Shown here: one piece after another, positions 3,515 to 34,532 of the stretch | How positions within the stretch are numbered: position 1 is the first letter of the stretch | Layout of the letters: the number at the start of each line of letters is the position of its first letter | NCBI GenBank assembly: GCA_026387835.1 | Contig: JAPLKZ010000013.1 | Span: 89,254 to 153,253 of the forward strand | Source: Candidatus Saganbacteria bacterium | Lineage (GTDB): Bacteria; Margulisbacteria; WOR-1; JAKLHX01 | Direction: 5' to 3' | DNA length: 64,000 nucleotides | The notes under the pieces: model-generated | The model's database searches: none | What the model was told of the DNA's origin: nothing | What the model saw: only the letters and a program-made list of their open reading frames with translations | Position numbers and translations under genes: made by a program

Positions 3515-3558
3515 AAAATAAGTGAAATTTATCCATGAAATCTACGATACTCTAATAG
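3515..3558 (+). promoter_or_regulatory. conserved upstream element AAAAT-N-AGTGAAATT-N15-CGATAC-N2-TAATAG (copy 1 of 3)
   Basis: Same spaced architecture recurs at 11263-11307 and 28626-28670, each upstream of an ORF start. Confidence 0.4.
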
Positions 3559-3577
3559 AACGACTTAAGGAGAAAAA

Positions 3578-4216
3578 ATGACACAACAAATGAGGATCGA
3601 ACGCAGTTTAATACTTCGCCCGATCGCGATGACGCTGACAAGGATGATAATGGGACAGCCCAAAACGCTCGGTAGGAAATGGTTCGAAGGTGTCGGTGAG
3701 GGTCATGTGGCGACAGGCACCACAGGCGGCCGCACTACTTTTGATCTTCCGTTGCTGTTCAAGCCCGATACACCCTTAAAAGATGTAAAACCGGCAGTCT
3801 CAGGACTGTGCTTTGACCAGGCATCAAAACTTCTGAACAGAGGAAGAGCTGTTTTTACCGCGAGAGGAAATTACACGCAGGCAGCAATGGATACATACAG
3901 GGCGGAGTTCCTTGCACTTCCGCATGAGGGATCTGACGAAAGGCTTTTTGCGCTGTTCATGATGATGGCCGCATTCCCGTTCACACTAGATAATATGATT
4001 GCAGAAACAGGTTCTAATGTCATGATCGGAACGATAAGACCACTGGAAGGCCCGAGGGTAGTTCTTGATTTTGAAAGGCACAAAGGGAAAGTCGATGTGC
4101 AATCCGTTGCAAACATGTTCCTTGCGCACTTGAATATCATCTCAGGCATCGAGCCTAAACTCGTAGAAAGAACGGATGGCGATCCTTTGCTTAGACTTGT
4201 TTTTCCGAAAGAATAG
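3578..4216 (+). CDS. hypothetical protein (212 aa), no recognised domain
   Basis: ORF with RBS aaggag 8 nt upstream of ATG and a promoter-like element at 3515-3558. Confidence 0.5.
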   Translation: MTQQMRIERSLILRPIAMTLTRMIMGQPKTLGRKWFEGVGEGHVATGTTGGRTTFDLPLLFKPDTPLKDVKPAVSGLCFDQASKLLNRGRAVFTARGNYTQAAMDTYRAEFLALPHEGSDERLFALFMMMAAFPFTLDNMIAETGSNVMIGTIRPLEGPRVVLDFERHKGKVDVQSVANMFLAHLNIISGIEPKLVERTDGDPLLRLVFPKE

Positions 4217-4230
4217 GGCAGAGCTACTGT

Positions 4231-4379: not shown

Positions 4380-5162
4380 ATGGGCGAGATCAACAGAACA
4401 GAGACTAAACAAAACGTTGCAGCGCAGGCAGGAAAAACAAACGAAAGAACAATTAACCTGCCCGATGAAAAAAGCAGGAGTTCGATGTCCGGGCCGGTCA
4501 TCGATGACGGACTGGACAGGTTCGACCGCGACATCTGGAGTAAGGCCCACGGCTGGGCAAACGGAGCCCCGTTCAATAACGGGTGGAGATCGGACCATGT
4601 GGCGTTCGAGAACGGCAGGATGGTTCTGACGCTCGACAACACCGCGAGTTCAGGAAAACCGTACACTTCCGGTGAATACAGGACAAAAGACTTTTACGGA
4701 TACGGCACGCTTGAGGCAAGCATCAAAGCGGCTGCGGGCGAAGGCATAATGGGGGGGTCATTGTTCTTCTGCACCGGCCCTTACGACAATAACCCGTGGG
4801 ACGAGATAGACATCGAGATCATCAAAGGGAAAATGCAGGTCAATTATATTACTAACGGTAACGGGAACAACGAAAGAACGATCGAGCTTGGATTTGATCC
4901 TTCAAAAGCTTTTCACACGTATAAAATAGAATGGCGGCCTGACATGATCATCTGGTCGGTCGACGAAAAAGAGGTGCACAGAGAGAACGGTTCCCGCAGT
5001 CCTCTTCCGAAGACCCCCGGAAGGATCATCGCTAATTTGTGGACAGGTAAAGATGTTGACGGTTGGCTGGGGAAGTTTGAATACAGATCCCCGTTGAGAG
5101 CCGAATATGACTGGATAAAATACACGCCTTTTAAAGACAAGACGTCCGGCTGCAATAAATAG
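4380..5162 (+). CDS. glycoside hydrolase family 16-like (beta-glucanase/laminarinase type), no signal peptide seen
   Basis: WDEIDIEI catalytic-type motif and jelly-roll-like context; sits between the two leuS 3-prime copies. Confidence 0.65.
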   Translation: MGEINRTETKQNVAAQAGKTNERTINLPDEKSRSSMSGPVIDDGLDRFDRDIWSKAHGWANGAPFNNGWRSDHVAFENGRMVLTLDNTASSGKPYTSGEYRTKDFYGYGTLEASIKAAAGEGIMGGSLFFCTGPYDNNPWDEIDIEIIKGKMQVNYITNGNGNNERTIELGFDPSKAFHTYKIEWRPDMIIWSVDEKEVHRENGSRSPLPKTPGRIIANLWTGKDVDGWLGKFEYRSPLRAEYDWIKYTPFKDKTSGCNK

Positions 5163-8809: not shown

Positions 8810-10261
8810 CTAAACGGTCCTTCTAAACTTATCCAGCCCCTGGATCTTAAGCAAATTGTTGACCATTCCCACGGCATCCTTTTTCAGGTCCGATACGGAA
8901 GATGCCAATTCGATGTAATCTTTTTTGTAGATCAGATCAGAGCCGGGGATGGAGGCAAAAACATTATAATAATCCTTGGTGACGGGGTTGTTCTTTACCG
9001 TTTCGGCGAAGTGTCTTATTGAAGCCGCGGAATCGCCCGCTTCATGGTACACTTCGCTGATCGCATACCTCGGCTCCTTGATCTCCATATTTATCATCAC
9101 GCGCATACCGGGCACACAAACGCGGACAGCCGGGATGTCCAATTTGAGATGGGTCTTGTCGATGACAACGGTCTTGTATCCGGATTTTTCCAGTATCCCC
9201 ATAATATAGAGTATCTCTTCCTTTATATCAGGCTTGCACGCGCTGGGGACCTCATCCATCGTGACGCTTTTTTTACTTTTCAGGAGCATCTCCGTGTTAT
9301 ATAAAGGAAGGAAACCCGTATGTTTTTTAGGCAGCGCGGACATGACCTCTTTCCAGTTGACATTCAGCTCTTCCTGAGAAACGCACATAAGGGAAAAACC
9401 CTCAAAATATTCTGCCAGGGCCCTGATCAGCGCTTTTTGCGGGTCCGTGCTAGCCCCCTGGCCGACCCCCTGATAAGTAAGTTTGTCTTTGTCCTGTTCG
9501 CGGATGCCGTAAGCTATGAAGGTCGGCACTTTGAAATCAAAAGAGATGTCCTTTATTGTGAATTTGATCCCGTTCTTCTGAGAATTTTCCAGAACTCTTG
9601 TCACAAGAAGATTATTGATGCTTTCAAGCTTCAGGTCATTTCCCGGTTCCATGTCCATGAAAAGACGGCAGATGTTCTCCCTTTCTATGACCTCGCAAAG
9701 GGCCTGCAGTATAGCCTCTTCCATCGTGTTGCCGGCTGCGAGCCCGTTGGACCCGACCACCATGTTATGCCAGTTCACCGGATAATAGAACGGTTTCCGG
9801 TCGTTAAGGCACGTGCCCAGGACCCATTTAAGAGGTATGTCCTTTATTTCCCTGAGCAGTTCATCGCGGTCTTTCAGGTCGATGAAATTGCAGAGGAAAT
9901 ATGATTCGTCAACTGTCTGGATATCCCCCTTTTTGATCTCGTTAAAGCTTTTCAGGCAATATCCCTCATAATGTTCATAATCAAAATGCAGCCACGAATA
10001 CCGTTCCGCGAATTCCATGACCGCGCTGGCCTTTGATTGTTCCGGAGTGAGGCCCTTGCCGCTGGTCTTAAGTTTGTCGCTTATGCTTGAAAAAGAATAA
10101 GCGCCTTCAATGGCGTCTTTCCTGGGTTCGATCCTGAAACTTGACAGGTCAAGCATTGTTTCCAGATGTTTTAAGGCGTTTTCTATTGTCGAGGAAGGGT
10201 CCGTGACCTTGTCCTGGTCAAGCGTGTATTTTTTCGGGCAACTTTTAAGTTCGATCACCAT
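8810..10261 (-). CDS. YcaO-domain protein (stand-alone)
   Basis: 483 aa; YcaO-like motifs (GKGLTPEQSKASAVMEFAERYSW, GSNGLAAGNTMEEAILQALCEVIERE); no TfuA or precursor gene adjacent. Confidence 0.65.
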   Translation of the reverse strand: MVIELKSCPKKYTLDQDKVTDPSSTIENALKHLETMLDLSSFRIEPRKDAIEGAYSFSSISDKLKTSGKGLTPEQSKASAVMEFAERYSWLHFDYEHYEGYCLKSFNEIKKGDIQTVDESYFLCNFIDLKDRDELLREIKDIPLKWVLGTCLNDRKPFYYPVNWHNMVVGSNGLAAGNTMEEAILQALCEVIERENICRLFMDMEPGNDLKLESINNLLVTRVLENSQKNGIKFTIKDISFDFKVPTFIAYGIREQDKDKLTYQGVGQGASTDPQKALIRALAEYFEGFSLMCVSQEELNVNWKEVMSALPKKHTGFLPLYNTEMLLKSKKSVTMDEVPSACKPDIKEEILYIMGILEKSGYKTVVIDKTHLKLDIPAVRVCVPGMRVMINMEIKEPRYAISEVYHEAGDSAASIRHFAETVKNNPVTKDYYNVFASIPGSDLIYKKDYIELASSVSDLKKDAVGMVNNLLKIQGLDKFRRTV

Positions 10262-11030: not shown

Positions 11031-11117
11031 CGGAAGGAGCAGGATTTGAACCTGCGGTGCGCTTGCACGCACAGTAGTTTTCAAGACTACCGCCATAAAC
11101 CACTCGGCCATCCTTCC
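11031..11117 (-). tRNA. tRNA-Ser (anticodon TGA), type II with long variable arm
   Basis: GGAAGGATGGCCGAGTGG...CTTGAAA anticodon loop...TTCAAATCC T-loop; 7-bp acceptor stem GGAAGGA/TCCTTCC; no encoded CCA. Confidence 0.85.
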
Positions 11118-18973: not shown

Positions 18974-19046
18974 GAGCCACTAGCTCATCTGGTAGAGCAC
19001 TTGCCTTTTAAGCAAGTGGTGCCGCGTTCGAGTCGCGGGTGGCTCA
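18974..19046 (+). tRNA. tRNA-Lys (anticodon TTT)
   Basis: Acceptor GAGCCAC/GTGGCTC, anticodon loop CTTTTAA, T-loop TTCGAGT. Confidence 0.85.
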
Positions 19047-19052
19047 AATTAT

Positions 19053-19128
19053 GGGCCCGTGGTGTAGCCTGGTCTAACACGCATGCCTGTCACGCATGAG
19101 ATCGAGGGTTCAAATCCCTTCGGGCCCG
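19053..19128 (+). tRNA. tRNA-Asp (anticodon GTC)
   Basis: Acceptor GGGCCCG/CGGGCCC, anticodon loop CTGTCAC, T-loop TTCAAAT. Confidence 0.85.
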
Positions 19129-19134
19129 TTTGTT

Positions 19135-19207
19135 GGCGGGTTAGCTCAGTTGGTAGAGCAGTAGCCTGAAAAGCTATGTGTCCTCAGTTCAATTCTGAGA
19201 CCCGCCA
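19135..19207 (+). tRNA. tRNA-Phe (anticodon GAA)
   Basis: Acceptor GGCGGGT/ACCCGCC, anticodon loop CTGAAAA, T-loop TTCAATT. Confidence 0.85.
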
Positions 19208-19259
19208 AATTATCTTTTTTGCTGTGGGCTTGCGCCGAGCGAGTGAAGCGAGTCGAGGC

Positions 19260-19332
19260 GCCGACGTAGCTCAGCTGGTAGAGCAGCTGTTTCGTAAACA
19301 GCAGGTCGTCAGTTCAATCCTGACCGTCGGCT
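19260..19332 (+). tRNA. tRNA-Thr (anticodon CGT)
   Basis: Acceptor GCCGACG/CGTCGGC, anticodon loop TTCGTAA, T-loop TTCAATC. Confidence 0.85.
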
Positions 19333-19376
19333 TTAATAAGTTTTATGTTAGAATATGCTATCTGAAAGGAAGAAAT

Positions 19377-19751
19377 ATGTCAAAAAAAATACTTGTGATC
19401 GATGATGAAAATGATGTGGTGGAGATACTCAAGACGATCCTTGAGCATGAAAAATATGAAGTGATAAGCAGTTACGGCGGTGAAGACGGGCTTAAAAAAG
19501 CGATAGCATCTAAGCCCGACCTCATAATCACGGACATAATGATGCCGGGGATGGACGGTTTCGAGTTCGTGCAAAAGCTTAAAGAGAACATGGAGACGTT
19601 CAATATCCCCGTGATCATGCTGACCGCAAAGGACCAGGGAGTTGACAGGGAAAAAGGCCTGGCGCTCGGCGTGATAGCTTACATAGTAAAACTGTTCGAT
19701 CTTGAAGAGCTTATATCCACGGTAAAAGACGCAGTCGAAAAGAAAAAATGA
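19377..19751 (+). CDS. single-domain response regulator (CheY-like receiver)
   Basis: 124 aa from ATG 19377 with RBS gaaaggaag; receiver motifs (ILVIDDE, phospho-acceptor Asp in IITDIMMPGMDG, Lys in AYIVKLF); the longer ORF from 19176 would read through tRNA genes. Confidence 0.8.
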   Translation: MSKKILVIDDENDVVEILKTILEHEKYEVISSYGGEDGLKKAIASKPDLIITDIMMPGMDGFEFVQKLKENMETFNIPVIMLTAKDQGVDREKGLALGVIAYIVKLFDLEELISTVKDAVEKKK

Positions 19752-19763
19752 ATGAGCCGAAGC

Positions 19764-19836
19764 GCTGGCGTAGCTCAGCTGGTAGAGCAGCGGTTTTGTA
19801 AACCGCAGGTCGTCAGTTCAATCCTGACCGCCAGCT
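19764..19836 (+). tRNA. tRNA-Thr (anticodon TGT)
   Basis: Acceptor GCTGGCG/CGCCAGC, anticodon loop TTTGTAA, T-loop TTCAATC. Confidence 0.85.
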
Positions 19837-26255: not shown

Positions 26256-27010
26256 GTATTTCAAGCGGTTATATTTCTTCGATATTCCAGAGCATACAGG
26301 GAGAAGGCGTCTATATCGGTGAAAGGCAGGTCTTTGTAAGGTTCTTAGGATGCAATCTATCATGCGCGTATTGCGATGAACAGGAAGCCCGGATCATAAA
26401 TGACAAGGACGGCCGGCCGCGGAAATGCCAGATCAAAGCGGATAAAAAAACGGAACAAGCCGATAATCCCGTAACAGCGGACGCAGCGCTGCAGTTCATT
26501 GAAAATTTTCTTTCAAAAAAAAATCTCTTCCATTCGGTATGTCTTACCGGAGGAGAACCCCTGCTGCAGGTTGATTTTCTAAAAGATCTTCTGCCTAAAA
26601 TAAAGCACAAAAAATATCTTGAGACGAACGGCGTCCTTTTTGAGAACCTCAGAGAGATGATCGGTCTTACGGACATTATAGCGATGGATTTCAAGCTGCC
26701 TTCCGCAACCAGGGCGGGGTCATATTTCGAGGACCACAGGCGGTTCATCAGAGTAGCCAGGGCAAAGGAACTGTTCATCAAGGCGGTTTTTTCAAAAGAG
26801 ACCACGGCCAAGGAGATCGACGATATCTCGCGCGTGATCTCAGAAGAAGGCAGTGATATTCCTCTCGTGCTGCAGCCTGTAACACCGAGCAGGGATTACA
26901 GGTCCCCGGCCTCAGCTGAACAGTGCCTGGCGTTCCAGGCCATAGCAAAAAGGAATTTGGACAAAGTACTCGTCATCCCGCAGACGCACAAGATCCTTGG
27001 ACTTGATTAG
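26252..27010 (+). CDS. queE: 7-carboxy-7-deazaguanine synthase-like radical SAM protein
   Basis: 252 aa; IFQSIQGEGVYIGERQVFVRFLGCNLSCAYCDE cluster motif, LTGGEPL. Confidence 0.7.
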   Translation: MSISSGYISSIFQSIQGEGVYIGERQVFVRFLGCNLSCAYCDEQEARIINDKDGRPRKCQIKADKKTEQADNPVTADAALQFIENFLSKKNLFHSVCLTGGEPLLQVDFLKDLLPKIKHKKYLETNGVLFENLREMIGLTDIIAMDFKLPSATRAGSYFEDHRRFIRVARAKELFIKAVFSKETTAKEIDDISRVISEEGSDIPLVLQPVTPSRDYRSPASAEQCLAFQAIAKRNLDKVLVIPQTHKILGLD

Positions 27011-28422
27011 CGGGCAGTCCTTCTGCTCAGAGACGCGGTTATCGCCGAAAGGTGCTGAATGTCACGGTTCCTGTTGGGATCAAAGCTGATCTTCTGGAGA
27101 GATCTCAGCAGTTCAAGCTTGTATATCGCGGTATCAAGAGCCAGTTTCTCAAGCCCCGTCTCGATCCATTTTATCCCTTCTTTAGGTATATCGTAGCCCA
27201 GCGTGTTGGATTTTTTAGTTAGTCTTGATATTTCTTTTGAGGCGACATCGAATTCGCGGGACGAGGTCGTAAGGATCCTGTTAAGATGGGACTGTTTGAG
27301 CATCGATATTATCTTAAGCCAGGCTATGCGGCGCGACTGCGTCCTGATGTTGTCGATATTTTCTTTTTCCATTCCCCTGTCCTTCAGGGTGTTTTCGAGC
27401 CTCCGGACCGTTACTCTTTCAGGAACCGCTTTAAAAATGTTGTCTTCGAGGAAAAGTTTTGTATGAGAAGTGCGGAGGTCGCCGACAACTACTGAGATGT
27501 CTTTCATCTGCGGCAGGTCGAAAAGATGAAAATACATATCGGCATTTTCCAGCCGGTTGATATGCACATTATCGCCCAGGAACATTTTCATCATCGAATC
27601 GATGTCAAGATTGAGATGTTCCGCGAGCTGGGCGAGGTCCGAGATATCAAGATTGTTCAGGATGACGGCCCTTTCGCTGAGCGAGATCGACTCTTTTTCG
27701 AGCGCGTTCAGGATATCGATGATAGATCTCGGATTTTTGGCATTGATTATCCAGTCTGACATGTGCAGGGTGCCGCTTGCGGAGCTGAAAAATTTATCTT
27801 TGATCAGTTTAAGGAATCTTTCTTTGATCATATCGAGGGTCTTTTGGTCGAGGTATTCCAGGTCGATCCCGATCAATCCGCCTTTCATAAGCGCTTCTTT
27901 CACGGCTGCCAGGCGGATCGTAACATTGTCCAGCTCGTCCTTAGGCCGCTGCATTACCATCTTTGCGGTAAGCGCCACATAATCTTTAAGAAGGGTCTCC
28001 TCGATGATCTTCGCTTTTTCCGTAAAGCTGATGTATTCCGCCGCGGCGGAAAGGCCTCCCGTTTCTCCGGGTGCTTTCGTTTCGCTCTCCTCCTCTTTTT
28101 TCTCCCCTTCCTTTTTCGGCCTTTTTTTCTCGGCCTTCTTGACCACGGAATCAAGCCTGCGCTCCGAGATCTTTGCTAATTCCTGTTGGTAAAACATTTC
28201 TTCTTCATGGGGTTTTCTCTGGCGTTTTGAGTTCACCTCGGAGACGCCGTCCGAAGAGATCATCTCTATCAGCAGGTCTTTGAATTTGGCCTTCGGATCG
28301 TTGTCCGGAGGCACCGCGTTCGGTTCGGTCCTCGCTTTCCTGTCAAATCCCGTGGAAAGTATACCGCCTGTCCCCGCGGCCGCGGCCTGCTGGTTGGAAG
28401 AAGGAAGCCCCTCTATTGGCAT
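27007..28422 (-). CDS. hypothetical protein (471 aa) with Lys/Glu-rich low-complexity N-terminal region
   Basis: Long ORF with no recognised domain; convergent with queE, divergent from the DGR target gene. Confidence 0.5.
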   Translation of the reverse strand: MPIEGLPSSNQQAAAAGTGGILSTGFDRKARTEPNAVPPDNDPKAKFKDLLIEMISSDGVSEVNSKRQRKPHEEEMFYQQELAKISERRLDSVVKKAEKKRPKKEGEKKEEESETKAPGETGGLSAAAEYISFTEKAKIIEETLLKDYVALTAKMVMQRPKDELDNVTIRLAAVKEALMKGGLIGIDLEYLDQKTLDMIKERFLKLIKDKFFSSASGTLHMSDWIINAKNPRSIIDILNALEKESISLSERAVILNNLDISDLAQLAEHLNLDIDSMMKMFLGDNVHINRLENADMYFHLFDLPQMKDISVVVGDLRTSHTKLFLEDNIFKAVPERVTVRRLENTLKDRGMEKENIDNIRTQSRRIAWLKIISMLKQSHLNRILTTSSREFDVASKEISRLTKKSNTLGYDIPKEGIKWIETGLEKLALDTAIYKLELLRSLQKISFDPNRNRDIQHLSAITASLSRRTAR

Positions 28423-28506
28423 AAAAGATCCCCGTTTCGAAAATTATACACCATCAGGTGGAAATAGGGTATAGGGCGAAGAAATGACTAATTAATGGAT
28501 TATATA

Positions 28507-28520
28507 AGCAGCAAGCAGTC
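28507..28520 (+). repeat. AGCAGCAAGCAGTC motif (copy 1), followed by an imperfect palindrome
   Basis: Related copies at 30394-30428 and 31141-31171. Confidence 0.5.
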
Positions 28521-28625
28521 AGCCCGCCTGCAACGCTTTGCGTAGCAATGCGGGCAGGCAGAACGCGGTACGTGCCGAGAGCATGTCAAGCATCCAAACA
28601 TTATACCCCCCCCTCCCCACATAAT

Positions 28626-28670
28626 AAAATTCAGTGAAATTCCCAATATTTCCATTCGATACATATATAG
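28626..28670 (+). promoter_or_regulatory. conserved upstream element (copy 3 of 3), AAAATTCAGTGAAATT-N15-CGATAC-N2-ATATAG
   Basis: Same architecture as 3515-3558; ends 26 nt upstream of ATG 28697. Confidence 0.4.
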
Positions 28671-28696
28671 ATGAAAATACCGAAAGGAGAAAAGTG

Positions 28697-29359
28697 ATGA
28701 ATAATATTAGAGGGATCATGCGTGGATGGACAAACGAAGGAAGACCGGCAACATGGGCGAATGTAAGAAATGCAATAGCGAATCAGACCGCGTGTTCTGT
28801 GGTTGTATCATCAGGATTGGGGCCGATCTTATCGCTTACAAGGCGGAGGGTGGAAGAAGGCCCCGTACAAAAACTTGCGCGGACTGCAACCCCTGCTTTT
28901 GATGTGGCAAAGTTCATGGAAGCCCACAATTTTATCGATGTTCCCGAAAGACCTTTTAGAATAATGGCAGACGAGCTTTCGGTAGGGCTATTCAACCGAT
29001 TTGTTAAAAGCACACAATACGAAATTATAGGCCATAATGCGGATTCTTTAAAAGGAGTTCTTGCCGGAACAGATCGACGCAGTATAGCAACATATTTAAG
29101 CTGGAATGACGGCACGGCTTATGCTAAATGGCTGAGCGCAGTAACTGGCAAAAGCATTATGCTTCCAACAGAGAAGAAATGGTTAGACGCCGTTGACAAA
29201 GTCCGAGATCAACTATCTGGGAACAATTGGGAATGGACGAAAACCCCATATTCCAGCAACGCCTTTGTTCTCCATCACCTGAACAATTCGCTCCGTTTCA
29301 ACTGCATCCCTGGGAATCGTTTTAACTTCAATGCGGTCCGTCTTGTTGAGGACAAATAA
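28697..29359 (+). CDS. DGR target-type protein with FGE/C-type-lectin-like fold and Asn-rich C-terminal VR-like segment
   Basis: Motifs ...LSWNDGTAYAKWLS...LPTEKKWLDAV...GNNWEWTKTP...NSLRFNCIPGNRFNFNAVRLV; RBS aaaggagaaaag; GTG at 28634 is an alternative upstream start. Confidence 0.65.
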   Translation: MNNIRGIMRGWTNEGRPATWANVRNAIANQTACSVVVSSGLGPILSLTRRRVEEGPVQKLARTATPAFDVAKFMEAHNFIDVPERPFRIMADELSVGLFNRFVKSTQYEIIGHNADSLKGVLAGTDRRSIATYLSWNDGTAYAKWLSAVTGKSIMLPTEKKWLDAVDKVRDQLSGNNWEWTKTPYSSNAFVLHHLNNSLRFNCIPGNRFNFNAVRLVEDK

Positions 29360-29429
29360 ATTATCCTTTGCTCTTTTATTCTTTTACTCTTTGAGTGGGA
29401 TGGGGTGGCCAGGAGTTTGAGGGAAATAA

Positions 29430-29768
29430 ATGGAAGGTCCAAAAGTTATAACCTTGGCCTATGATTTCATAAAATGGGCCATTCCTCATATTGTGAAGTT
29501 TCCAAGAAATCAAAGATACACGCTTGGGGAACGGGTTGAAAACAAACTATTCTTCCTTCTGGAACTTCTCATTGAAGCTCAGTATTCTAAAGACAAAGCT
29601 AATGTGCTTAAGAAAGCGAACATGGAAATTGAGCAGACACGATATTTATTCCGTTTATGCCATGACTTGCGGCTGATCAATTTAAAAACCTACGAATTGT
29701 CTTCAAGGCAGTTGATGGGAATTGGGGCGCAGGTCGGGGGATGGATCAAGCAGCAAAATACCAAATGA
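29430..29768 (+). CDS. avd: DGR accessory variability determinant (four-helix-bundle, 23S rRNA IVS protein family)
   Basis: 112 aa; family-typical N-terminus (LAYDFIKWAIPHIVKFPRNQRYTLGERVENKLF); stop overlaps the RT start (ATGA). Confidence 0.75.
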   Translation: MEGPKVITLAYDFIKWAIPHIVKFPRNQRYTLGERVENKLFFLLELLIEAQYSKDKANVLKKANMEIEQTRYLFRLCHDLRLINLKTYELSSRQLMGIGAQVGGWIKQQNTK

Positions 29769-30397
29769 AGCGCCACGGTTATTTATTCGATAAGATCACT
29801 TCTTTTGAAAATCTCTTAAAAGCCTCACGAAAAGCTCAGAGGGGTAAACGCTTCAAGAATTCCACGGCCGAATTTAACTTAAAAATAGAGTCCGAACTGC
29901 TGGAACTGCAAAGAGAACTGCAAGAGGCAACTTATCGAATAGGCAGCTATAAACAATTCTACATTTATGACCCAAAGAAACGGTTAATCAACGCCTTGTC
30001 TTACAGAGACAGGGTTGCTCAGCATGCTTTATGCAATGTTATCGAGCCGATATTCGATAACGGATTAATTTATGATAGTTACGCCTGCAGGAAAGATAAA
30101 GGCAGCCATAGGGCTGTCAGCCGGTTTGCGATGTATTGCCGCAAGAATAAATATGCCTTGAAGTGCGACATTAAAAGCTATTTTGCCTCAATAGATCACG
30201 GCCTCTTGTTTGACATGATCATGAAAAAAATTAAAGACCCGGATGTAATACAGCTGATTAACTTGATCCTTGATTCAACCCCTTCTCCCGGAATTCCAAT
30301 CGGGAATTTGGCCAGCCAAATATTCGCCAATCTTTATCTTAACGGACTTGACCATTATTTAAAGCAACCTTCGAGATTGAAATCGACCCCCGCTTAG
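29765..30397 (+). pseudogene. DGR-type reverse transcriptase, 3-prime truncated (N-terminal about 210 aa only)
   Basis: N-terminal RT motifs (MKRHGYLFDKI, YIYDPKKRLINALSYRDRVAQHALCNVIEPIF, DSYACRKDKGSHRAV, QIFANLYLNGLDHY); ORF stops before the YxDD active-site region. Confidence 0.75.
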
Positions 30398-30428
30398 CAG
30401 TCCGCAGCAAGCAGTCTGCAAGCTGCGG
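30394..30428 (+). repeat. TTAGCAG...GCAGCAAGCAGTC...CTGCGG motif (copy 2) at the RT breakpoint
   Basis: Overlaps the stop of the truncated RT ORF; related to copies 1 and 3. Confidence 0.5.
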
Positions 30429-30438
30429 TCCAACTCCC

Positions 30439-31038
30439 TCAAACAAACCCAAACTTCCCCTTCGGTTTGCTTTCGTCTTTCAATATCTTGTTGATCGCGC
30501 TGAAGAGACTGATGATGTCCTGGTCGTGCCGCCCGATCTTGTGCTCTATCTCTGACAGCTTCTGGATCAACTCTTTGTTGAATGTAAGCAACTGCCTAAT
30601 TTTTACGAATGCTCTCATTATGGCTATATTGACCTGGATGGCCCGTTTGCTTGTAAGTACAGAGGAAAGCATGGCTATTCCTTGTCCTGTAAATGCGTAT
30701 GGAAGGTATTTGATATGTCGTCCGCGCATGGAATTTGGGTCATGCTTGTGGTCGAATTTCTTTAAGGTTGCAAAATGCAACCTTAAACAATCCAATTCTT
30801 CCCATGTGAGTTGGAACATAAAATCTTTGGGAAATCTTGAAATATTTCTATTTACTTGCTGTTTTAATCTTTTGATGCTTTCCTCATATAATGGAGCCAG
30901 GTCGGCATCCAACATGACTTTCTGGCCTCTTAAAAGGAAGATACTGGACTCTATTGATTCGGCGGAAATAATCATACTGTTGGATTTTTCAACATCTTGG
31001 TCTACGGATGCCTTTTTGTTACGCACACTTTTTGGCAT
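30439..31038 (-). CDS. ORF6N-domain protein (KilA-N-like DNA-binding family common in mobile elements)
   Basis: 199 aa; ...RGQKVMLDADLAPLYEESIKRLKQQVNRNISRFPKDFMFQLT...KYLPYAFTGQGIAMLSSVL. Confidence 0.75.
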   Translation of the reverse strand: MPKSVRNKKASVDQDVEKSNSMIISAESIESSIFLLRGQKVMLDADLAPLYEESIKRLKQQVNRNISRFPKDFMFQLTWEELDCLRLHFATLKKFDHKHDPNSMRGRHIKYLPYAFTGQGIAMLSSVLTSKRAIQVNIAIMRAFVKIRQLLTFNKELIQKLSEIEHKIGRHDQDIISLFSAINKILKDESKPKGKFGFV

Positions 31039-31140
31039 AAATATCCTCTCTTTCCCGGATCAAGGCTTAAAGCCAGCAGCTTACAAATGGTCAATGAGCA
31101 ATTTATCCGCCACGACAAAGGCTCTATCGCTAGGGTTCTA

Positions 31141-31171
31141 TTAGCAGCAAGCAGTCCGCAGACTGCGGAAC
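31141..31171 (+). repeat. TTAGCAGCAAGCAGTCCGCAGACTGCGG motif (copy 3)
   Basis: Flanks the ORF6N gene on the side opposite copy 2; contains palindrome CCGCAGACTGCGG. Confidence 0.5.
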
Positions 31172-31217
31172 TTGTTTCATCATAATTATTTTTTTCACCG
31201 TGATATAATTAGTTGAA

Positions 31218-34200
31218 ATGCCGAAAAGAAACGACATAAAAAAAATAATGCTCATCGGTTCCGGGCCGATCGTCATCGGCCAGGCGTGCGAGTTCGATTA
31301 TTCGGGAACGCAGGCGTGCAAGGCCTTAAAAGAAGAAGGATACAAGATCATCCTTGTGAACAGCAACCCGGCGACAATAATGACGGACCCGGAGTTCGCT
31401 GACAGGACCTATATCGAACCGATAACACCGGAGATAGTTGAAAAAATAATAGCGATAGAAAGACCGGATGCTCTGCTTCCGACGATCGGGGGACAGACGG
31501 CCTTGAACACGACCGTGGCTTTAGGTGATTCAGGCGTCTTTAAAAAGTACGGAGTCGAACTTATAGGCGCCAGCCTCGACTCTATAAAAAAAGCGGAGGA
31601 CAGGCATCTTTTCAAGGAGGCCATGAAAAACATCGGCCTTAACATGCCGAAAAGCTATTCTGTCTACAGTTCCGAAGAAGCGGTCAAGATTATCGGTGAC
31701 ATAGGGTTCCCGGCGATAATCAGGCCGGCTTTCACCCTGGGAGGCACGGGCGGGGGGATCGCGTACAATATCGAAGAATTGAAAGAAAAAGTAGCTCAGG
31801 GTGTATTTCTGAGCAGGATCGGACAGGTCCTGATCGAGGAATCGGTCATAGGATGGAAGGAATACGAGCTTGAGGTGATGCGCGACCTGAAGGATAATGT
31901 AGTCATAATCTGCTCGATAGAGAACTTCGATCCTATGGGCATCCACACGGGAGACAGCATCACGGTCGCGCCCGCCCAGACGCTGACCGACAAGGAGTAC
32001 CAAAGATTAAGGAATTATTCCATAGCCGTGATGAGGGAGATCGGAGTTGATACCGGCGGTTCTAACATCCAGTTCGCCGTAAATCCGGAGAACGGCAGGG
32101 TAGTAATAATAGAGATGAACCCGCGCGTCTCCAGAAGTTCGGCGCTCGCTTCAAAAGCGACAGGATTCCCGATAGCAAAGATCGCCGCCAAGCTTGCCGT
32201 GGGGTACACTTTGGACGAGATCCCTAACGACATCACAAAAAAGACCCCAGCCTCGTTCGAACCGACGATAGATTATGTAGTCACCAAGATCCCGCGGTTC
32301 GCTTTCGAGAAATTTCCCGGAGCCGACCAGACGCTCAATATACAGATGAAATCAGTCGGAGAGGCAATGGCGATCGGAAGGACTTTTAAGGAATCGCTCC
32401 AGAAAGCTCTCAGATCGATCGAGACAGGCGCCTGCGGGCTTGATGATATCAAAGATGAAAAAGAAAAAAGCGTAAGCGGACACAGCGAAGATGAACAGTC
32501 GCTGCAATTATCGATCTATGACAGGCCTAAGACAGAGACCGGAGATATACCGCTTGAAAAAATAAAAGAAAAGATCAGTATCCCCAATCCGGAAAGGCTG
32601 TTCTATATCAAAAAAGCATTTCAATCCGGCATTTCACTGGAAGACGTCTGCAAATTATCAAAGATCGACAAATGGTTCCTGGACAATATTTTGCAGATCG
32701 TCTCGATGGAGGAAAAGATCAAGAACGGGAAGTCCTCTGTAAAGATGACCGGAGACAGGTACGATATTGATGCAAAATTATTACTGGAAGCGAAAAGATG
32801 CGGATTTTCTGACAAACAGATAGCAAGGATGTGGGATATGACCGAGCATGAGGTGGCAAGTGCCCGAAAGAATGCCGGCATCATTCCGGCGTATAAGACG
32901 GTCGATACTTGCGCGGCGGAGTTCGAGGCGTATACACCATATTACTATTCTACTTACGAAAAAGAGGACGAGGTCGCGCCGTGCAAAAAACCGAAGATCA
33001 TGATCCTCGGGGGAGGGCCCAACCGGATCGGACAGGGCATCGAGTTCGATTATTGCTGCTGCCATGCCTCGTTCGCCCTGAAAGAGGACGGCTACGAGAC
33101 TATAATGGTCAACTGCAATCCCGAAACTGTCTCGACAGATTACGATACTTCCGACAGGCTGTATTTTGAGCCTATGACTTTTGAGGACATAATGCACATA
33201 GCGGAGCGCGAAAAACCCATCGGCGCGATAGTCCAGTTCGGCGGCCAGACGCCCCTTAAACTGGCGGTCCCGCTTGAGAAAGCCGGGCTGAAGCTTCTGG
33301 GGACATCGTCCGAATCAATAGATATAGCAGAGGACAGGAAAAGGTTTGAACAGATGCTTGAAAAACTGGAAATACCCCGTCCCAACAACGGGATGGCCAT
33401 GTCTTACGAAGAAGCAAATGTTGTCGCAAAAAGAATCGGTTATCCAGTGCTGGTGAGGCCGTCATATGTCCTTGGAGGAAGAGCGATGCAGATAGTATAT
33501 GATGACGGGATGCTGCGCGATTATATGAAGAACGCGGTGAACGTGTCTCCCGACCATCCTGTCCTGATCGACCAGTTCCTGGAGGATGCGATCGAGATCG
33601 ACGTGGATTGTGTTTCGGACGGCAGGGATGTCATCATCGCAGGGATAATGGAGCACATTGAAGAAGCGGGGATACACAGCGGTGACAGCGCATGCGTGCT
33701 TCCTCCGTTCTCCATCGGAGAAGAAATAATAAAAAAAATAAAAGAATACACCTATGCCATGGCTAAAAAGCTGAAGGTCTCGGGGCTCATGAACGTCCAG
33801 TACGCTATCAAAAGCGATAAAGTATATGTGCTTGAAGTGAACCCGCGCGCGTCGCGCACTGTCCCGTTCGTAAGCAAAGCGACCGGTGTCTCATGGGCGA
33901 AGATCGCGGCAAGGGTCATGGCAGGCAAGACTTTAAAAGAACTGAAAGTGAAGGAGGCAGTGCCTGATCATTTGTCTGTCAAAGAAGTGGTCCTCCCGTT
34001 CATAAAGTTTTCCAAACAGGATACCGTTCTTGGCCCGGAGATGAAATCCACCGGCGAGGTCATGGGGATCTCGAACAACCTCGGTGAAGCGTTCGCAAAA
34101 GCCCAGATCGGTGCCGGAGAAAATATCCCGGTCAAAGGCACCGTTTTTATTTCTGTCAGGGACAGGGACAAACGTCCGATCGTCCCGATCGCAAAGATGC

Positions 34201-34532
34201 TGTCCACCCTGGGCTTTGATATCATCGCGACCGAAGGGACGGCAAATGCCCTCGGCAGGTCGGGTATAGATGTGAGAAAAATAAAAAAAGTCAGCGAAGG
34301 CAGGCCGAACATAGCGGATGAGATAAAATCCGGGAAGATCGATCTTGTTATCAACACACCTCAGGGCAAAGGCCCGAGATCCGACGAATATTCGATCAGA
34401 AGAGAGGCGCTGCTCGGCAAAATACTGGTGGTAACGACCATCCCCGGCGCGCAGGCGATCACCGGGGCGATCGAATATTTGACAAAGTCACAGTTGACAG
34501 TGAAGGCGCTTCAGGAGTATTTTAGTAAATAA
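31218..34532 (+). CDS. carB: carbamoyl-phosphate synthase large subunit
   Basis: 1104 aa; duplicated ATP-grasp halves and C-terminal MGS-like domain; no carA adjacent. Confidence 0.95.

Follow-up and report, generated by a model that had tools for sequence, protein, structure and literature searches.

Three related direct repeats, putative att-like junctions, at the borders and the seam of two small accessory modules inserted upstream of carB in a Candidatus Saganbacteria genome

The present analysis of a 64-kb stretch of a Candidatus Saganbacteria genome (64,000 nt, hereafter the window) identified three related direct repeats (copies A, B and C) that delimit two adjacent modules, a DGR remnant (1.9 kb) and an ORF6N module (0.7 kb), inserted between a conserved hypothetical gene and carB. 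We give an even chance to the hypothesis that these copies are att-like junctions remaining from two insertions that used the same heptad-plus-hairpin site. If so, the motif makes the history of the locus readable: a conserved housekeeping spacer of a Saganbacteria genome would be a hot spot at which two small accessory modules were gained, with the repeats as their footprints, and in these uncultivated lineages both solitary ORF6N genes and compact DGR cassettes would act as small insertions devoid of an integrase. The features of the locus (positions in the window) are the following:

27007..28422, - strand: conserved hypothetical gene (471 aa), left chromosomal flank; no Pfam match; homologues 60% and 47% identical, which likewise adjoin carB
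28497..28523 (core 28507-28520), + strand: copy A, left border of the inserted block; core and left flank (GGaTTaTAta) common with C
28522..28559, + strand: imperfect 38-nt hairpin found by folding, directly after core A; GCCCGCCTGC...GCGGGCAGGC
28697..29359, + strand: DGR target gene, FGE-sulfatase / C-type-lectin-like (PF03781, E = 1.4e-9); mechanical ORF start at 28634
29430..29768, + strand: bAvd accessory gene (PF22296, E = 6.8e-18)
29765..30397, + strand: truncated DGR reverse transcriptase (RT) gene, homologous to intact 334-aa relatives up to position 30372 (...LDHYLK)
30373..30393, no strand: 21-nt spacer between the RT break and copy B; no significant likeness to the 3' ends of intact DGR cassettes
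30394..30428, + strand: copy B, made of five GCAGNNN-type heptads, at the seam of the two modules (DGR remnant and ORF6N)
30439..31038, - strand: solitary gene of a DNA-binding ORF6N-domain protein (199 aa; PF10543, E = 4e-29)
30761..30787, no strand: perfect 27-nt palindrome TTTAAGGTTGCAaaaTGCAACCTTAAA within the ORF6N coding sequence (codons ~85-93)
31039..31132, - strand: ORF6N upstream region, from comparison with another locus (L095)
31133..31169 (core 31143-31156), + strand: copy C, four heptads; right border of the inserted block
31218..34532, + strand: carB, right chromosomal flank (Pfam)

The inserted block and its two modules

The 471-aa gene and carB are found in the same order in two relatives (L188 and L190), where they are separated by only 99 and 178 nt, respectively, compared to 2,795 nt in the window. 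Therefore, the A-to-C block (2,636 nt) is an insertion; removal of positions 28507-31142 leaves a spacer of 159 nt. The alignment of the empty sites by eye indicates that a TATAAT-like promoter region (31170-31217) is common to the window and these relatives. The first-pass annotation had proposed that the motif delimits two adjacent accessory modules, and this proposal is supported by the comparison: the relatives provide the empty site, A and C map to the borders of the inserted DNA and B to the inner seam of the modules. The composition of the block is foreign (GC3 of 0.43-0.50 for the inserted genes compared to 0.55-0.61 for the flanking core genes). It should also be emphasized that the relatives carrying empty sites show only 47-60% protein identity to the window genes, a divergence too large to tell if the spacer already held the core before the insertion.

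The target is an intergenic spacer located between divergent promoters, whereas integrative elements typically target a tRNA gene or the 3' end of a gene. No integrase, recombinase or transposase gene was found in the block or in the ~10 kb on either side of it in annotated syntenic contigs. Neither an excision product nor an empty allele was seen among Logan contigs from >10 samples, which are 100% identical and all occupied, and exact-protein look-ups in the source samples retrieved the occupied arrangement only, carB itself having no entry. The observation that carB has no carA partner here is correct; since the relatives also lack an adjacent carA, this absence is ancestral and unrelated to the insertion.

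All gene calls made initially in this region (ORF6N, truncated RT, bAvd, target gene and carB) are borne out by Pfam. Like DGRs of the target-Avd-RT-TR type, the first module encodes a target protein with an FGE/CLec-like fold and a C-terminal variable region (VR) of this type, a bAvd and the N-terminal part of an RT. Unlike intact DGRs, it is devoid of a template repeat (TR) and of the catalytic, YxDD-containing half of the RT. Over its 203 N-terminal residues, the RT shares 84% identity with intact relatives, and the alignment with these 334-aa proteins stops ahead of YIRYMDD. At the DNA level, homology to one of these cassettes (L184) covers positions 29333-30372 (82.6%), and the last 27 nt of the target gene are homologous to the ends of the target genes of intact relatives. 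The latter are compact target-avd-RT-TR cassettes, carrying the TR directly after the RT gene and located in other genomic contexts; no TR-like repeat of the VR or of the 3' end of the target gene was detected between 27 and 33 kb of the window, and none of the relatives displays the arrangement of the window with an intact RT. This DGR is dead, being unable to diversify, and shows that a DGR can persist as a remnant that keeps intact target and avd genes. The proposed insertion of the ORF6N gene at the RT breakpoint is right only as an approximation: copy B begins 21 nt after the break (30373-30393), and the flanks of the copies suggest that the ORF6N module came first (see below). When these 21 nt were compared with the 3' ends of intact DGR cassettes, 40 of 500 shuffles scored equally well.

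The three copies and their hairpins

In the 64-kb window, the core, (A/C)GCAGCAAGCAGTC, is present in three copies, all on the + strand and within 2.7 kb (28507, 30403 and 31143); no fourth copy was found. The exact 14-mer AGCAGCAAGCAGTC is carried by A (28507-28520) and C (31143-31156), and B (30403-30416) differs from it by one mismatch. These three occurrences compare to 0.38 expected, and only two of 100 shuffles reached this number. Alignments extend beyond the core, with 23 identical positions out of 27 between A and C (28497-28523 and 31133-31159) and 22 out of 25 between B and C (30404-30428 and 31144-31168), B having one extra 7-nt unit. The local alignment scores are 34 for A-C, 35 for B-C and 27 for A-B, compared to a maximum of 28 in ~5000 random pairs. 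The counts of the 14-mer and the random-pair alignments confirm that the three related sequences initially reported (28507-28520, 30394-30428 and 31141-31171) are real, and the shuffles and random pairs rule out chance or low complexity as their source. The motif ending in '...CTGCGG', as first described, applies to B and C, but this tail is missing from A. B and C contain runs of GCAGNNN heptads (five and four units, respectively; four matches compared to 0.18 expected), and only three places of the window carry heptad arrays. The 13-nt core is unchanged in the three copies, whereas their arms differ by about 15-25%. Furthermore, the sharing of flanks is nested: the left arm of A matches that of C at seven of 10 positions and the right arm of B matches that of C at nine of 12.

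Folding revealed a hairpin after each copy. The conservation of structure envisaged by the first-pass annotation is partial, the hairpins of B and C being related and that of A being a different sequence. The heptads of B form a 13+1+13 quasi-palindrome (30402-30428; fold z = -3.0 on the + strand and -4.5 on the - strand) and C includes a 7+1+7 palindrome (31155-31169). The 38-nt hairpin of A (in full, GCCCGCCTGCAACGCTTTGCGTAGCAATGCGGGCAGGC) is present as a single copy in the window. Logan contigs break at this hairpin (seven of those shown start at 28530 and four end at 28551), which, for an assembly with k = 31, would imply a 38-nt repeat spanning exactly 28522-28559. This hairpin therefore probably also occurs elsewhere in the source metagenomes. 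Contigs run through B and C without breaks, and the breaks concern the A hairpin and not the shared core. Further samples carry contigs identical to those shown. The 38-nt hairpin was not found in IMG/VR, nor, at up to eight mismatches, in any related locus fetched.

The core was equally sparse elsewhere. At up to two mismatches, it is absent from ~82 kb of related loci, including the carB spacers of the relatives. Scans of IMG/VR (63 single matches) and of the GTDB representatives (20 single matches in unrelated phyla; the source species is not among these representatives) gave results at chance level. With only three copies, clustered, in 64 kb, these scans led us to reject a reading of the core as an abundant dispersed repeat. 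A known structured RNA was also rejected: Rfam covariance models identified only tRNAs in the window and nothing with E < 0.8 in 28350-31300. Promoter and terminator scans gave no signal above shuffles, and no U-tract follows the hairpins, except a weak one after C.

Two successive insertions and competing explanations

According to the scenario that we favor, the ancestral sequence would have been a short run of GCAGNNN heptads followed by a small hairpin, located in the divergent spacer of ~160 nt that separates carB from the 471-aa gene. Foreign DNA would have entered twice at this same spot. As each event would have placed the site on both sides of the incoming DNA, the two modules would be bounded by three direct copies. 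The core would be the sequence of crossover between a short sequence of the incoming DNA and its chromosomal counterpart, i.e., an att-like site used for a Campbell-type integration catalyzed by an enzyme supplied in trans or by the host. An identical 13-nt core surrounded by drifted arms is what would be expected in this case. If the copies derive from the target, the spacer of an un-inserted relative would hold a single GGATTATATWAGCAGCAAGCAGTCCGCAGACTGCGG. C has its left arm in common with A and its right arm in common with B, a pattern suggesting that the ORF6N module was acquired before the DGR fragment; the similarity of the left arms of A and C, on which this order is based, has a p of ~0.01 according to a rough binomial estimate. 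The copies themselves would have no present function.

The outcome would resemble the tandem accretion of integrative elements stripped of their integrase. Such an accretion, involving decayed cis-mobilizable elements (CIMEs) that lack an integrase and are flanked by att sites, is documented for the ICESt1/ICESt3 family (PMC5704250). As in CIME accretion, three direct copies of a site delimit two adjacent modules at one chromosomal position, with repeats at the borders and a copy (B) at the junction between elements, the modules encode no recombinase, and the core is identical whereas the arms have diverged. However, the modules of the window are tiny (1.9 and 0.7 kb), their target is a spacer instead of a tRNA gene or a gene 3' end, and no cognate recombinase is encoded by the block and its flanking ~10 kb in syntenic annotated contigs; the modules are also not known to have an excision product or a transfer function. 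We thus point to a likeness and do not claim that these modules are CIMEs.

The nested sharing of flanks would also be expected from two successive target-site duplications at slightly shifted positions. A trans-acting integrase or transposase would have made nicks 14-36 nt apart, gap repair would have duplicated the target at both insertions and the copies would have drifted later. This origin, which agrees with the duplication of 25-170 nt of local target DNA by other ORF6N insertions, is in our opinion unlikely, although it deserves attention. Drift should have hit the core like the arms, yet the 13-nt core is intact (rough p = 0.02-0.05). Furthermore, the ends of both modules are devoid of terminal inverted repeats (scores of 10-12 compared to a null mean of 13), and the repeats (14-36 nt) are longer and more variable than those given by DDE transposases, instead of the short duplications of fixed length that accompany DDE transposons and insertion sequences. 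To our knowledge, known DDE transposases do not make target duplications this long and variable. Finally, the mosaic of differences between the repeat copies of another ORF6N locus (L152, see below) does not fit plain duplication followed by drift.

The first-pass annotation had hesitated between a recombination site and a genome-specific REP-like element: a role as insertion site fits the data, whereas the lack of further copies speaks against the second proposal. The copies could nevertheless belong to a dispersed REP- or MITE-like family of this genome, clustered here by chance and used as substrate for homologous recombination. As in REPs and BIMEs, a short intergenic sequence associates a hairpin with a conserved motif at each copy, and the breaks of the Logan contigs would imply that the 38-nt A hairpin occurs elsewhere in the same metagenomes. 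However, these breaks affect the A hairpin only, the contigs spanning B and C. In addition, the core is confined to three places and the 38-nt hairpin to one in 64 kb, the core is missing from the ~82 kb of related loci, neither sequence occurs in IMG/VR beyond chance and the GTDB matches are single and scattered. Unlike REPs or BIMEs, the copies are clustered and in a single orientation, they share no imperfect palindrome (the A hairpin is not homologous to those of B and C) and no RAYT gene was seen. Such a family is thus a distinctly improbable explanation.

It is very improbable that the heptad-plus-hairpin is a functional cis element, whether a terminator, an insulator or the operator of a regulator that binds heptads, possibly the ORF6N protein itself. 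Some repressors, such as omega of pSM19035, do use spaced 7-nt repeats, two of the copies (A and C) are located between divergent promoters, shuffled sequences fold less well than the hairpins, and CTGY/RCAG heptad runs also adjoin ORF6N in three other loci (L149, L152 and L153). Nonetheless, B lies between two convergent gene 3' ends and not at a promoter, whereas A and C are between divergent promoters, which rules out a regulatory role common to the three copies. The motif is also absent from the carB spacers of relatives, the scarcity of U-tracts and the absence of Rfam matches argue against a terminator or known RNA element, and heptad arrays of many unrelated sequences abound in the intergenic DNA of ORF6N-bearing contigs, whatever their distance from the ORF6N gene.

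An integron-like cassette array without integrase (CALIN), in which the copies would be attC sites, is barely credible: direct structured sites whose hairpin sequence varies do separate small accessory modules, but (i) inspection of 28497-28560, 30385-30440 and 31130-31185 found no R'' RYYYAAC and R' GTTRRRY boxes around an imperfect palindrome of 57-141 nt, (ii) the hairpins (15-38 nt) lack the usual bulged architecture, (iii) one "cassette" consists of three genes with their own promoter region and the other of an ORF6N gene inverted relative to the sites and having its own upstream region, instead of single promoterless co-oriented ORFs each followed by an attC, and (iv) no intI gene is found nearby.

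The Saganbacteria/Margulisiibacteriota lineage is related to Cyanobacteria. In the latter, STRR heptanucleotide tandem repeats were reportedly described by Mazel and coworkers in 1990. The arrays of the window share with STRRs a 7-nt tandem periodicity in intergenic DNA, and heptad arrays are frequent in ORF6N-bearing contigs. Unlike STRR1-3, they include only 4-5 units, have four fixed positions out of seven and differ in sequence.

The solitary ORF6N gene and its palindrome

More than 7,900 homologues of the ORF6N protein were found, those named originating from MAGs of Saganbacteria, Margulisiibacteriota, Omnitrophota and Elusimicrobiota. Upstream of the gene, GTGGCGGnTAAATTGCTCAT (31084-31103 on the + strand) is common to another ORF6N locus of Saganbacteria (L095). 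The closest homologue (L182, 75% identity) overlaps an upstream ORF, which makes the comparison of module boundaries uninformative.

Direct repeats surround other solitary ORF6N genes, with scores of at least 35 at 13 of 71 loci compared to a 99th percentile of 31 in controls. These insertions are associated with duplications of 25-170 nt of local DNA that start 1-25 nt past the ORF6N stop codon. The 3' end of a neighboring gene is duplicated at two loci: proC in L152 (120 nt) and hsdM in L132 (47 nt). In L152, the two repeat copies differ by five synonymous changes in 27 coding nt and by one change in the last 76 nt. Phage 21 and e14, which are 20-40 kb prophages encoding their own integrase, integrate into icd and supply this gene with a new 3' end that differs by synonymous changes. 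The duplicated gene ends in L152 and L132, whose differences are mostly synonymous, recall these prophages; however, the insert is a single gene of 0.6 kb, and non-coding DNA is duplicated in the window. Overall, the causes of the repeats at other ORF6N loci are diverse, with tandem gene arrays, heptad tracts and relic palindromes among them, and these repeats are a weak precedent for those of the window. CTGY/RCAG heptad runs flank the ORF6N genes in L149, L152 and L153; the idea that heptad arrays are an ORF6N-specific trait is weakened by the presence of such arrays, with many different sequences, across the intergenic regions of these contigs.

The coding sequence of the ORF6N gene includes an unusual palindrome whose position is conserved across 66 homologues while its sequence covaries: in 47 of these 66 genes, a perfect palindrome with arms of 8 bp or more is found at one codon position. 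Randomization of synonymous codons ruled out that it is a by-product of an amino-acid motif, and an RNA hairpin is disfavored since G.U-type pairs are almost absent. The symmetry is maintained by covariation at the DNA level, where the constraint is strong. If the encoded ORF6N protein uses the palindrome for binding or recombination, the gene would constitute a compact self-referential protein-DNA module, which would lend itself to an easy biochemical test. On a more speculative note, solitary ORF6N genes of this environmental clade could be single-gene mobile cassettes of an undescribed kind, B and C being one landing-site duplication and the ORF6N protein and its palindrome forming their own insertion or maintenance machinery that needs no integrase; we consider this rather improbable. 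The footprint at carB is that of a fairly ordinary insertion.

Several other observations were made on these genes. They adjoin gene 3' ends, terminators or heptad tracts, together with the local duplications of 25-170 nt. Tandem arrays of solitary ORF6N genes occur, and palindromes of the same type are also present in the flanks of ORF6N genes and in relic fragments.

Repeat copies and the inserted block

Three copies (A, B and C) of a short repeat, all on the + strand, are present upstream of carB: the 14-mer AGCAGCAAGCAGTC is found exactly at 28507 (A) and 31143 (C) and with one mismatch at 30403 (B). This corresponds to three copies in the 64-kb window compared to 0.38 expected from shuffling, and no further copy of the core was found in this window. 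Our sequence search confirmed the first-pass annotation, which had reported this motif around the ORF6N gene and upstream of the target gene of a diversity-generating retroelement (DGR). Copies A (28497-28523) and C (31133-31159) are identical at 23 of 27 positions and copies B (30404-30428) and C (31144-31168) at 22 of 25; the local alignment scores among the copies are 34, 35 and 27, compared to a maximum of 28 when ~5000 randomly paired segments from the window were aligned. B and C consist of runs of GCAGNNN heptads, B being one unit longer. Every core is followed on its 3′ side by a hairpin: a 7+1+7 palindrome for C, a 13+1+13 quasi-palindrome for B and, for A, a 38-nt hairpin unrelated to the two others. 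Therefore, the "...CTGCGG" tail initially attributed to the whole motif is restricted to B and C, A having in common with C the core and the left arm. The gene identities proposed previously were borne out by Pfam.

Genes around the three repeats
27007-28422, - strand, 471-aa protein, no Pfam domain
28634/28697-29359, + strand, FGE-sulfatase-like DGR target (Pfam)
29430-29768, + strand, bAvd (Pfam)
29765-30397, + strand, RVT_1 fragment, truncated reverse transcriptase (RT) (Pfam)
30439-31038, - strand, ORF6N gene (Pfam)
31218-34532, + strand, carB (Pfam)

The closest relatives available are the loci L188 and L190/L191, whose homologues of the 471-aa protein are 60% and 47% identical, respectively. 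Gene order is conserved in both (radical-SAM gene and 47x-aa gene, followed divergently by carB, dnaE, PRA-CH and L25), but their 47x-aa gene and carB are separated by 99 and 178 nt compared to 2,795 nt in the window, where the spacer minus 28507-31142 amounts to 159 nt. The short spacer of the relatives, the -10-like elements that they share with the window beside the 47x-aa gene and carB, and the low GC3 of the inserted genes (0.43-0.50 compared to 0.55-0.61 for the neighbouring core genes) show that the A-to-C block was inserted in this lineage, A and C being its borders and B the seam between the DGR and ORF6N modules. This occupied arrangement is identical in Logan assemblies from more than 10 samples of two studies, and database entries for the ORF6N and 471-aa proteins come from a Candidatus Saganbacteria MAG. 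The absence of a carA partner for carB, pointed out previously, is real; since adjacent carA is also missing in the relatives, it is ancestral and not linked to the block. The empty spacer of L190 (~9850-9960, from the 47x-aa gene to carB) has a long imperfect palindrome of its own, GGATGAAGTATGAAGAAAGGAA..TTCCTTTCCTTGTCATACATCATCC, with units resembling heptads. Such hairpin and heptad structures may be a recurrent trait of this spacer despite differing sequences.

The dead DGR and the origin of the repeats

Intact relatives of the window RT (334 aa, up to 84% identity) align with it until ...LDHYLK, ahead of YIRYMDD, and DNA homology to intact DGR cassettes extends from 29333 to 30372 (82.6%). 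In these relatives, the template repeat (TR) directly follows the RT stop (in L184, variable repeat at 2639-2722 and TR at 4135-4218); no such TR-type repeat was found in the window. The window DGR, with its RT cut ahead of YIRYMDD and no TR, is therefore dead. The RT break is separated from copy B by 21 nt (30373-30393) of unassigned origin, without significant similarity to the 3′ ends of intact DGR cassettes. The insertion itself may have truncated the RT, or an internal deletion may have done so later.

The intact cassette of L184 lies between 24-nt direct repeats (1688-1711 and 4462-4485) containing the palindrome CCTGCCTGCCGGCAGGCAGG. It adjoins a tRNA gene, and a second copy of the 3′ end of this gene, TGGAGAGGGAAGGATTTG, is found ~230 nt away (~4507 and ~4735), a configuration typical of integration hot spots. 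Furthermore, ~250 nt after the RT stop (TR plus ~170 nt) are conserved between intact cassettes in different contexts (L184 4135-4384; L186 7026-7293) and terminate in a long-range hairpin; this region probably belongs to the DGR RNA as a structured segment.

The three copies have an unchanged 13-nt core and arms that diverge by 15-25%. In att-type recombination, strand exchange needs identity, so that an unchanged core and drifted arms are typical. Flank sharing is nested, A and C having a common left arm (7/10 match) and B and C a common right arm (9/12 match). Two successive insertions at one site would give this pattern and are the most likely history of the block, with att-type recombination as the most likely mechanism. 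The ORF6N module (~30429-31132) would have entered first with a ~36-nt repeat, and the DGR fragment (28521-30393) would then have entered the left copy, the core being repeated. With the reverse order, GGGTTCTA would be expected on the left side of B, where it is not seen; the order proposed here is suggested by a similarity that reaches only about p = 0.01. The closest described counterpart of the A/B/C arrangement is the tandem accretion of integrative elements and integrase-less CIMEs (PMC5704250). The main rival explanation is that the repeats were made by target duplication at a staggered cut. No terminal inverted repeats were found at the module ends. Neither the block nor the adjoining ~10 kb contains a recombinase gene.

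A dispersed repeat was rejected as far as this is testable: no core copy with up to two mismatches was found in ~82 kb of sequence from related loci in Saganbacteria and Margulisiibacteriota, and IMG/VR and the GTDB representative genomes (the source species not being among them) gave only single matches, at chance level. A common regulatory role is unlikely since the 3′ ends of two genes converge on B, A and C being located in divergent promoter spacers. The motif matches no Rfam family, and an attC-type site was dismissed because attC boxes are lacking. The initial interpretation is thus supported in part: the motif appears to be a boundary and insertion-site repeat, a further instance of an already known kind of footprint, but not a REP family, no dispersed copies having been found.

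ORF6N genes and their coding palindrome

The ORF6N subfamily comprises more than 7,900 proteins (E up to 1e-10) and is rare among phage records (five unannotated gut contigs). Its genes are solitary and placed among unrelated housekeeping genes. At 13 of 71 loci, the two sides of an ORF6N gene, upstream and downstream, can be aligned with each other as direct repeats (score of at least 35; 99th percentile of non-cognate flank pairs: 31). No single cause accounts for these repeats, which reflect tandem ORF6N genes or relic fragments (L105, L121, L144, L099), heptad tracts (L149, L153) and duplications of the 3′ end of a neighbour. In L152, where ORF6N comes right after proC, the last eight proC codons and the terminator are included in a 120-nt direct repeat (231-350, 943-1067) whose copies show five synonymous changes in 27 coding nt compared to one change in the last 76 nt. 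In L132, ORF6N lies between hsdM and hsdS (type I R-M) and a 47-nt segment from the 3′ end of hsdM is repeated (2778-2824, 3558-3604); in both loci, differences between copies are mostly synonymous. These loci show that repeat-bracketed ORF6N insertions recur, without revealing one uniform mechanism. Co-oriented tandem arrays of two or three ORF6N copies with truncated relics are also often present (L105, L111, L121, L124, L126, L136, L144, L158).

More surprising than the boundary repeat is a perfect 27-nt palindrome (30761-30787) within the coding sequence of the minus-strand ORF6N gene, of which no description was found in the searchable literature. Its centre falls on the same nucleotide in 66 homologous genes (homologous position in L099-L182), which is position 1 of the codon that aligns with residue 89. 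Perfect arms reach at least 8 bp in 47 of these 66 genes, with 45 different sequences, and at least 13 bp in 29; the mean perfect arm is 10.6 bp compared to 3.3 bp after synonymous codon randomisation, and 45 of the 66 genes beat all 200 of their own randomisations. In the alignment of 64 genes, 95.6% of cells pair (at most 46% when the partner is shifted by 1-3 columns), nine of 12 pairs have changes on both sides, and double-change cells number 156 compared to 39.5 ± 10 in shuffles. Since G.T pairs are nearly absent (6/792 cells), the constraint acts on DNA symmetry and not on an RNA hairpin. The consensus, TTTRAGGTCRCAA-W-TTGYGACCTYAAA, encodes L-R-S-Q-F/I-V-T-L-K. The palindrome is absent from two gut "phage" ORF6N homologues. 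The simplest idea would be a putative operator-like binding by an ORF6N dimer.

Palindromes of the same type occur outside the ORF6N genes in at least nine loci, within ~150 nt upstream or just downstream and often paired; their match to the internal palindrome of the adjacent gene is not constant. They could be operators or surviving relics.

ORF6N-type palindromes outside genes
L099, 5590-5610
L132, 2827-2847 and 2877-2897
L136, 2897-2960
L145, 587-623
L150, 78-141 and 710-742
L172, 3649-3706
L173, 2860-2890
L174, 2963-2981

The 38-nt hairpin, heptad arrays and other window features

Logan contigs break at the hairpin of copy A: at least seven of them, from at least seven samples, begin at 28530, and four terminate at 28551; further samples carry identical contigs. 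Under k = 31 assembly, this pattern implies that the exact hairpin (28522-28559) would also be present at other places in these metagenomes, within different flanking sequence. In that case, copy A's hairpin, and not the shared core, would be a repeated element; this hairpin is single-copy in the window and was not found in IMG/VR.

Contigs that carry these ORF6N genes frequently have, in their intergenic DNA, tandem arrays of 7-nt units of many different sequences (34 arrays in ~75 loci); within the range of 5-10 nt, other periods are rare. They recall the STRR heptamer repeats of cyanobacteria.

Arrays with a 7-nt period
L149, 2583-2750 and 3611-3697
L153, 264-324
L178, 1-103
Window, 30394-30428 and 31141-31168
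L106, L113, L134, L165 and others

In the window, a ~100-nt in-frame stretch (1040-1140) of dxr (620-1771, DXP reductoisomerase) consists of two heptad arrays (AAATCCG x3.9 and AAAATTC x3.6) together with a small GC hairpin. This stretch lies inside the segment matched by PF08436, where 108 residues align to an 84-position profile, and resembles the in-frame insertion of a repeat element. The window also carries five tRNA genes within ~860 nt (18974-19836) and one further tRNA gene on the minus strand (11031-11117).
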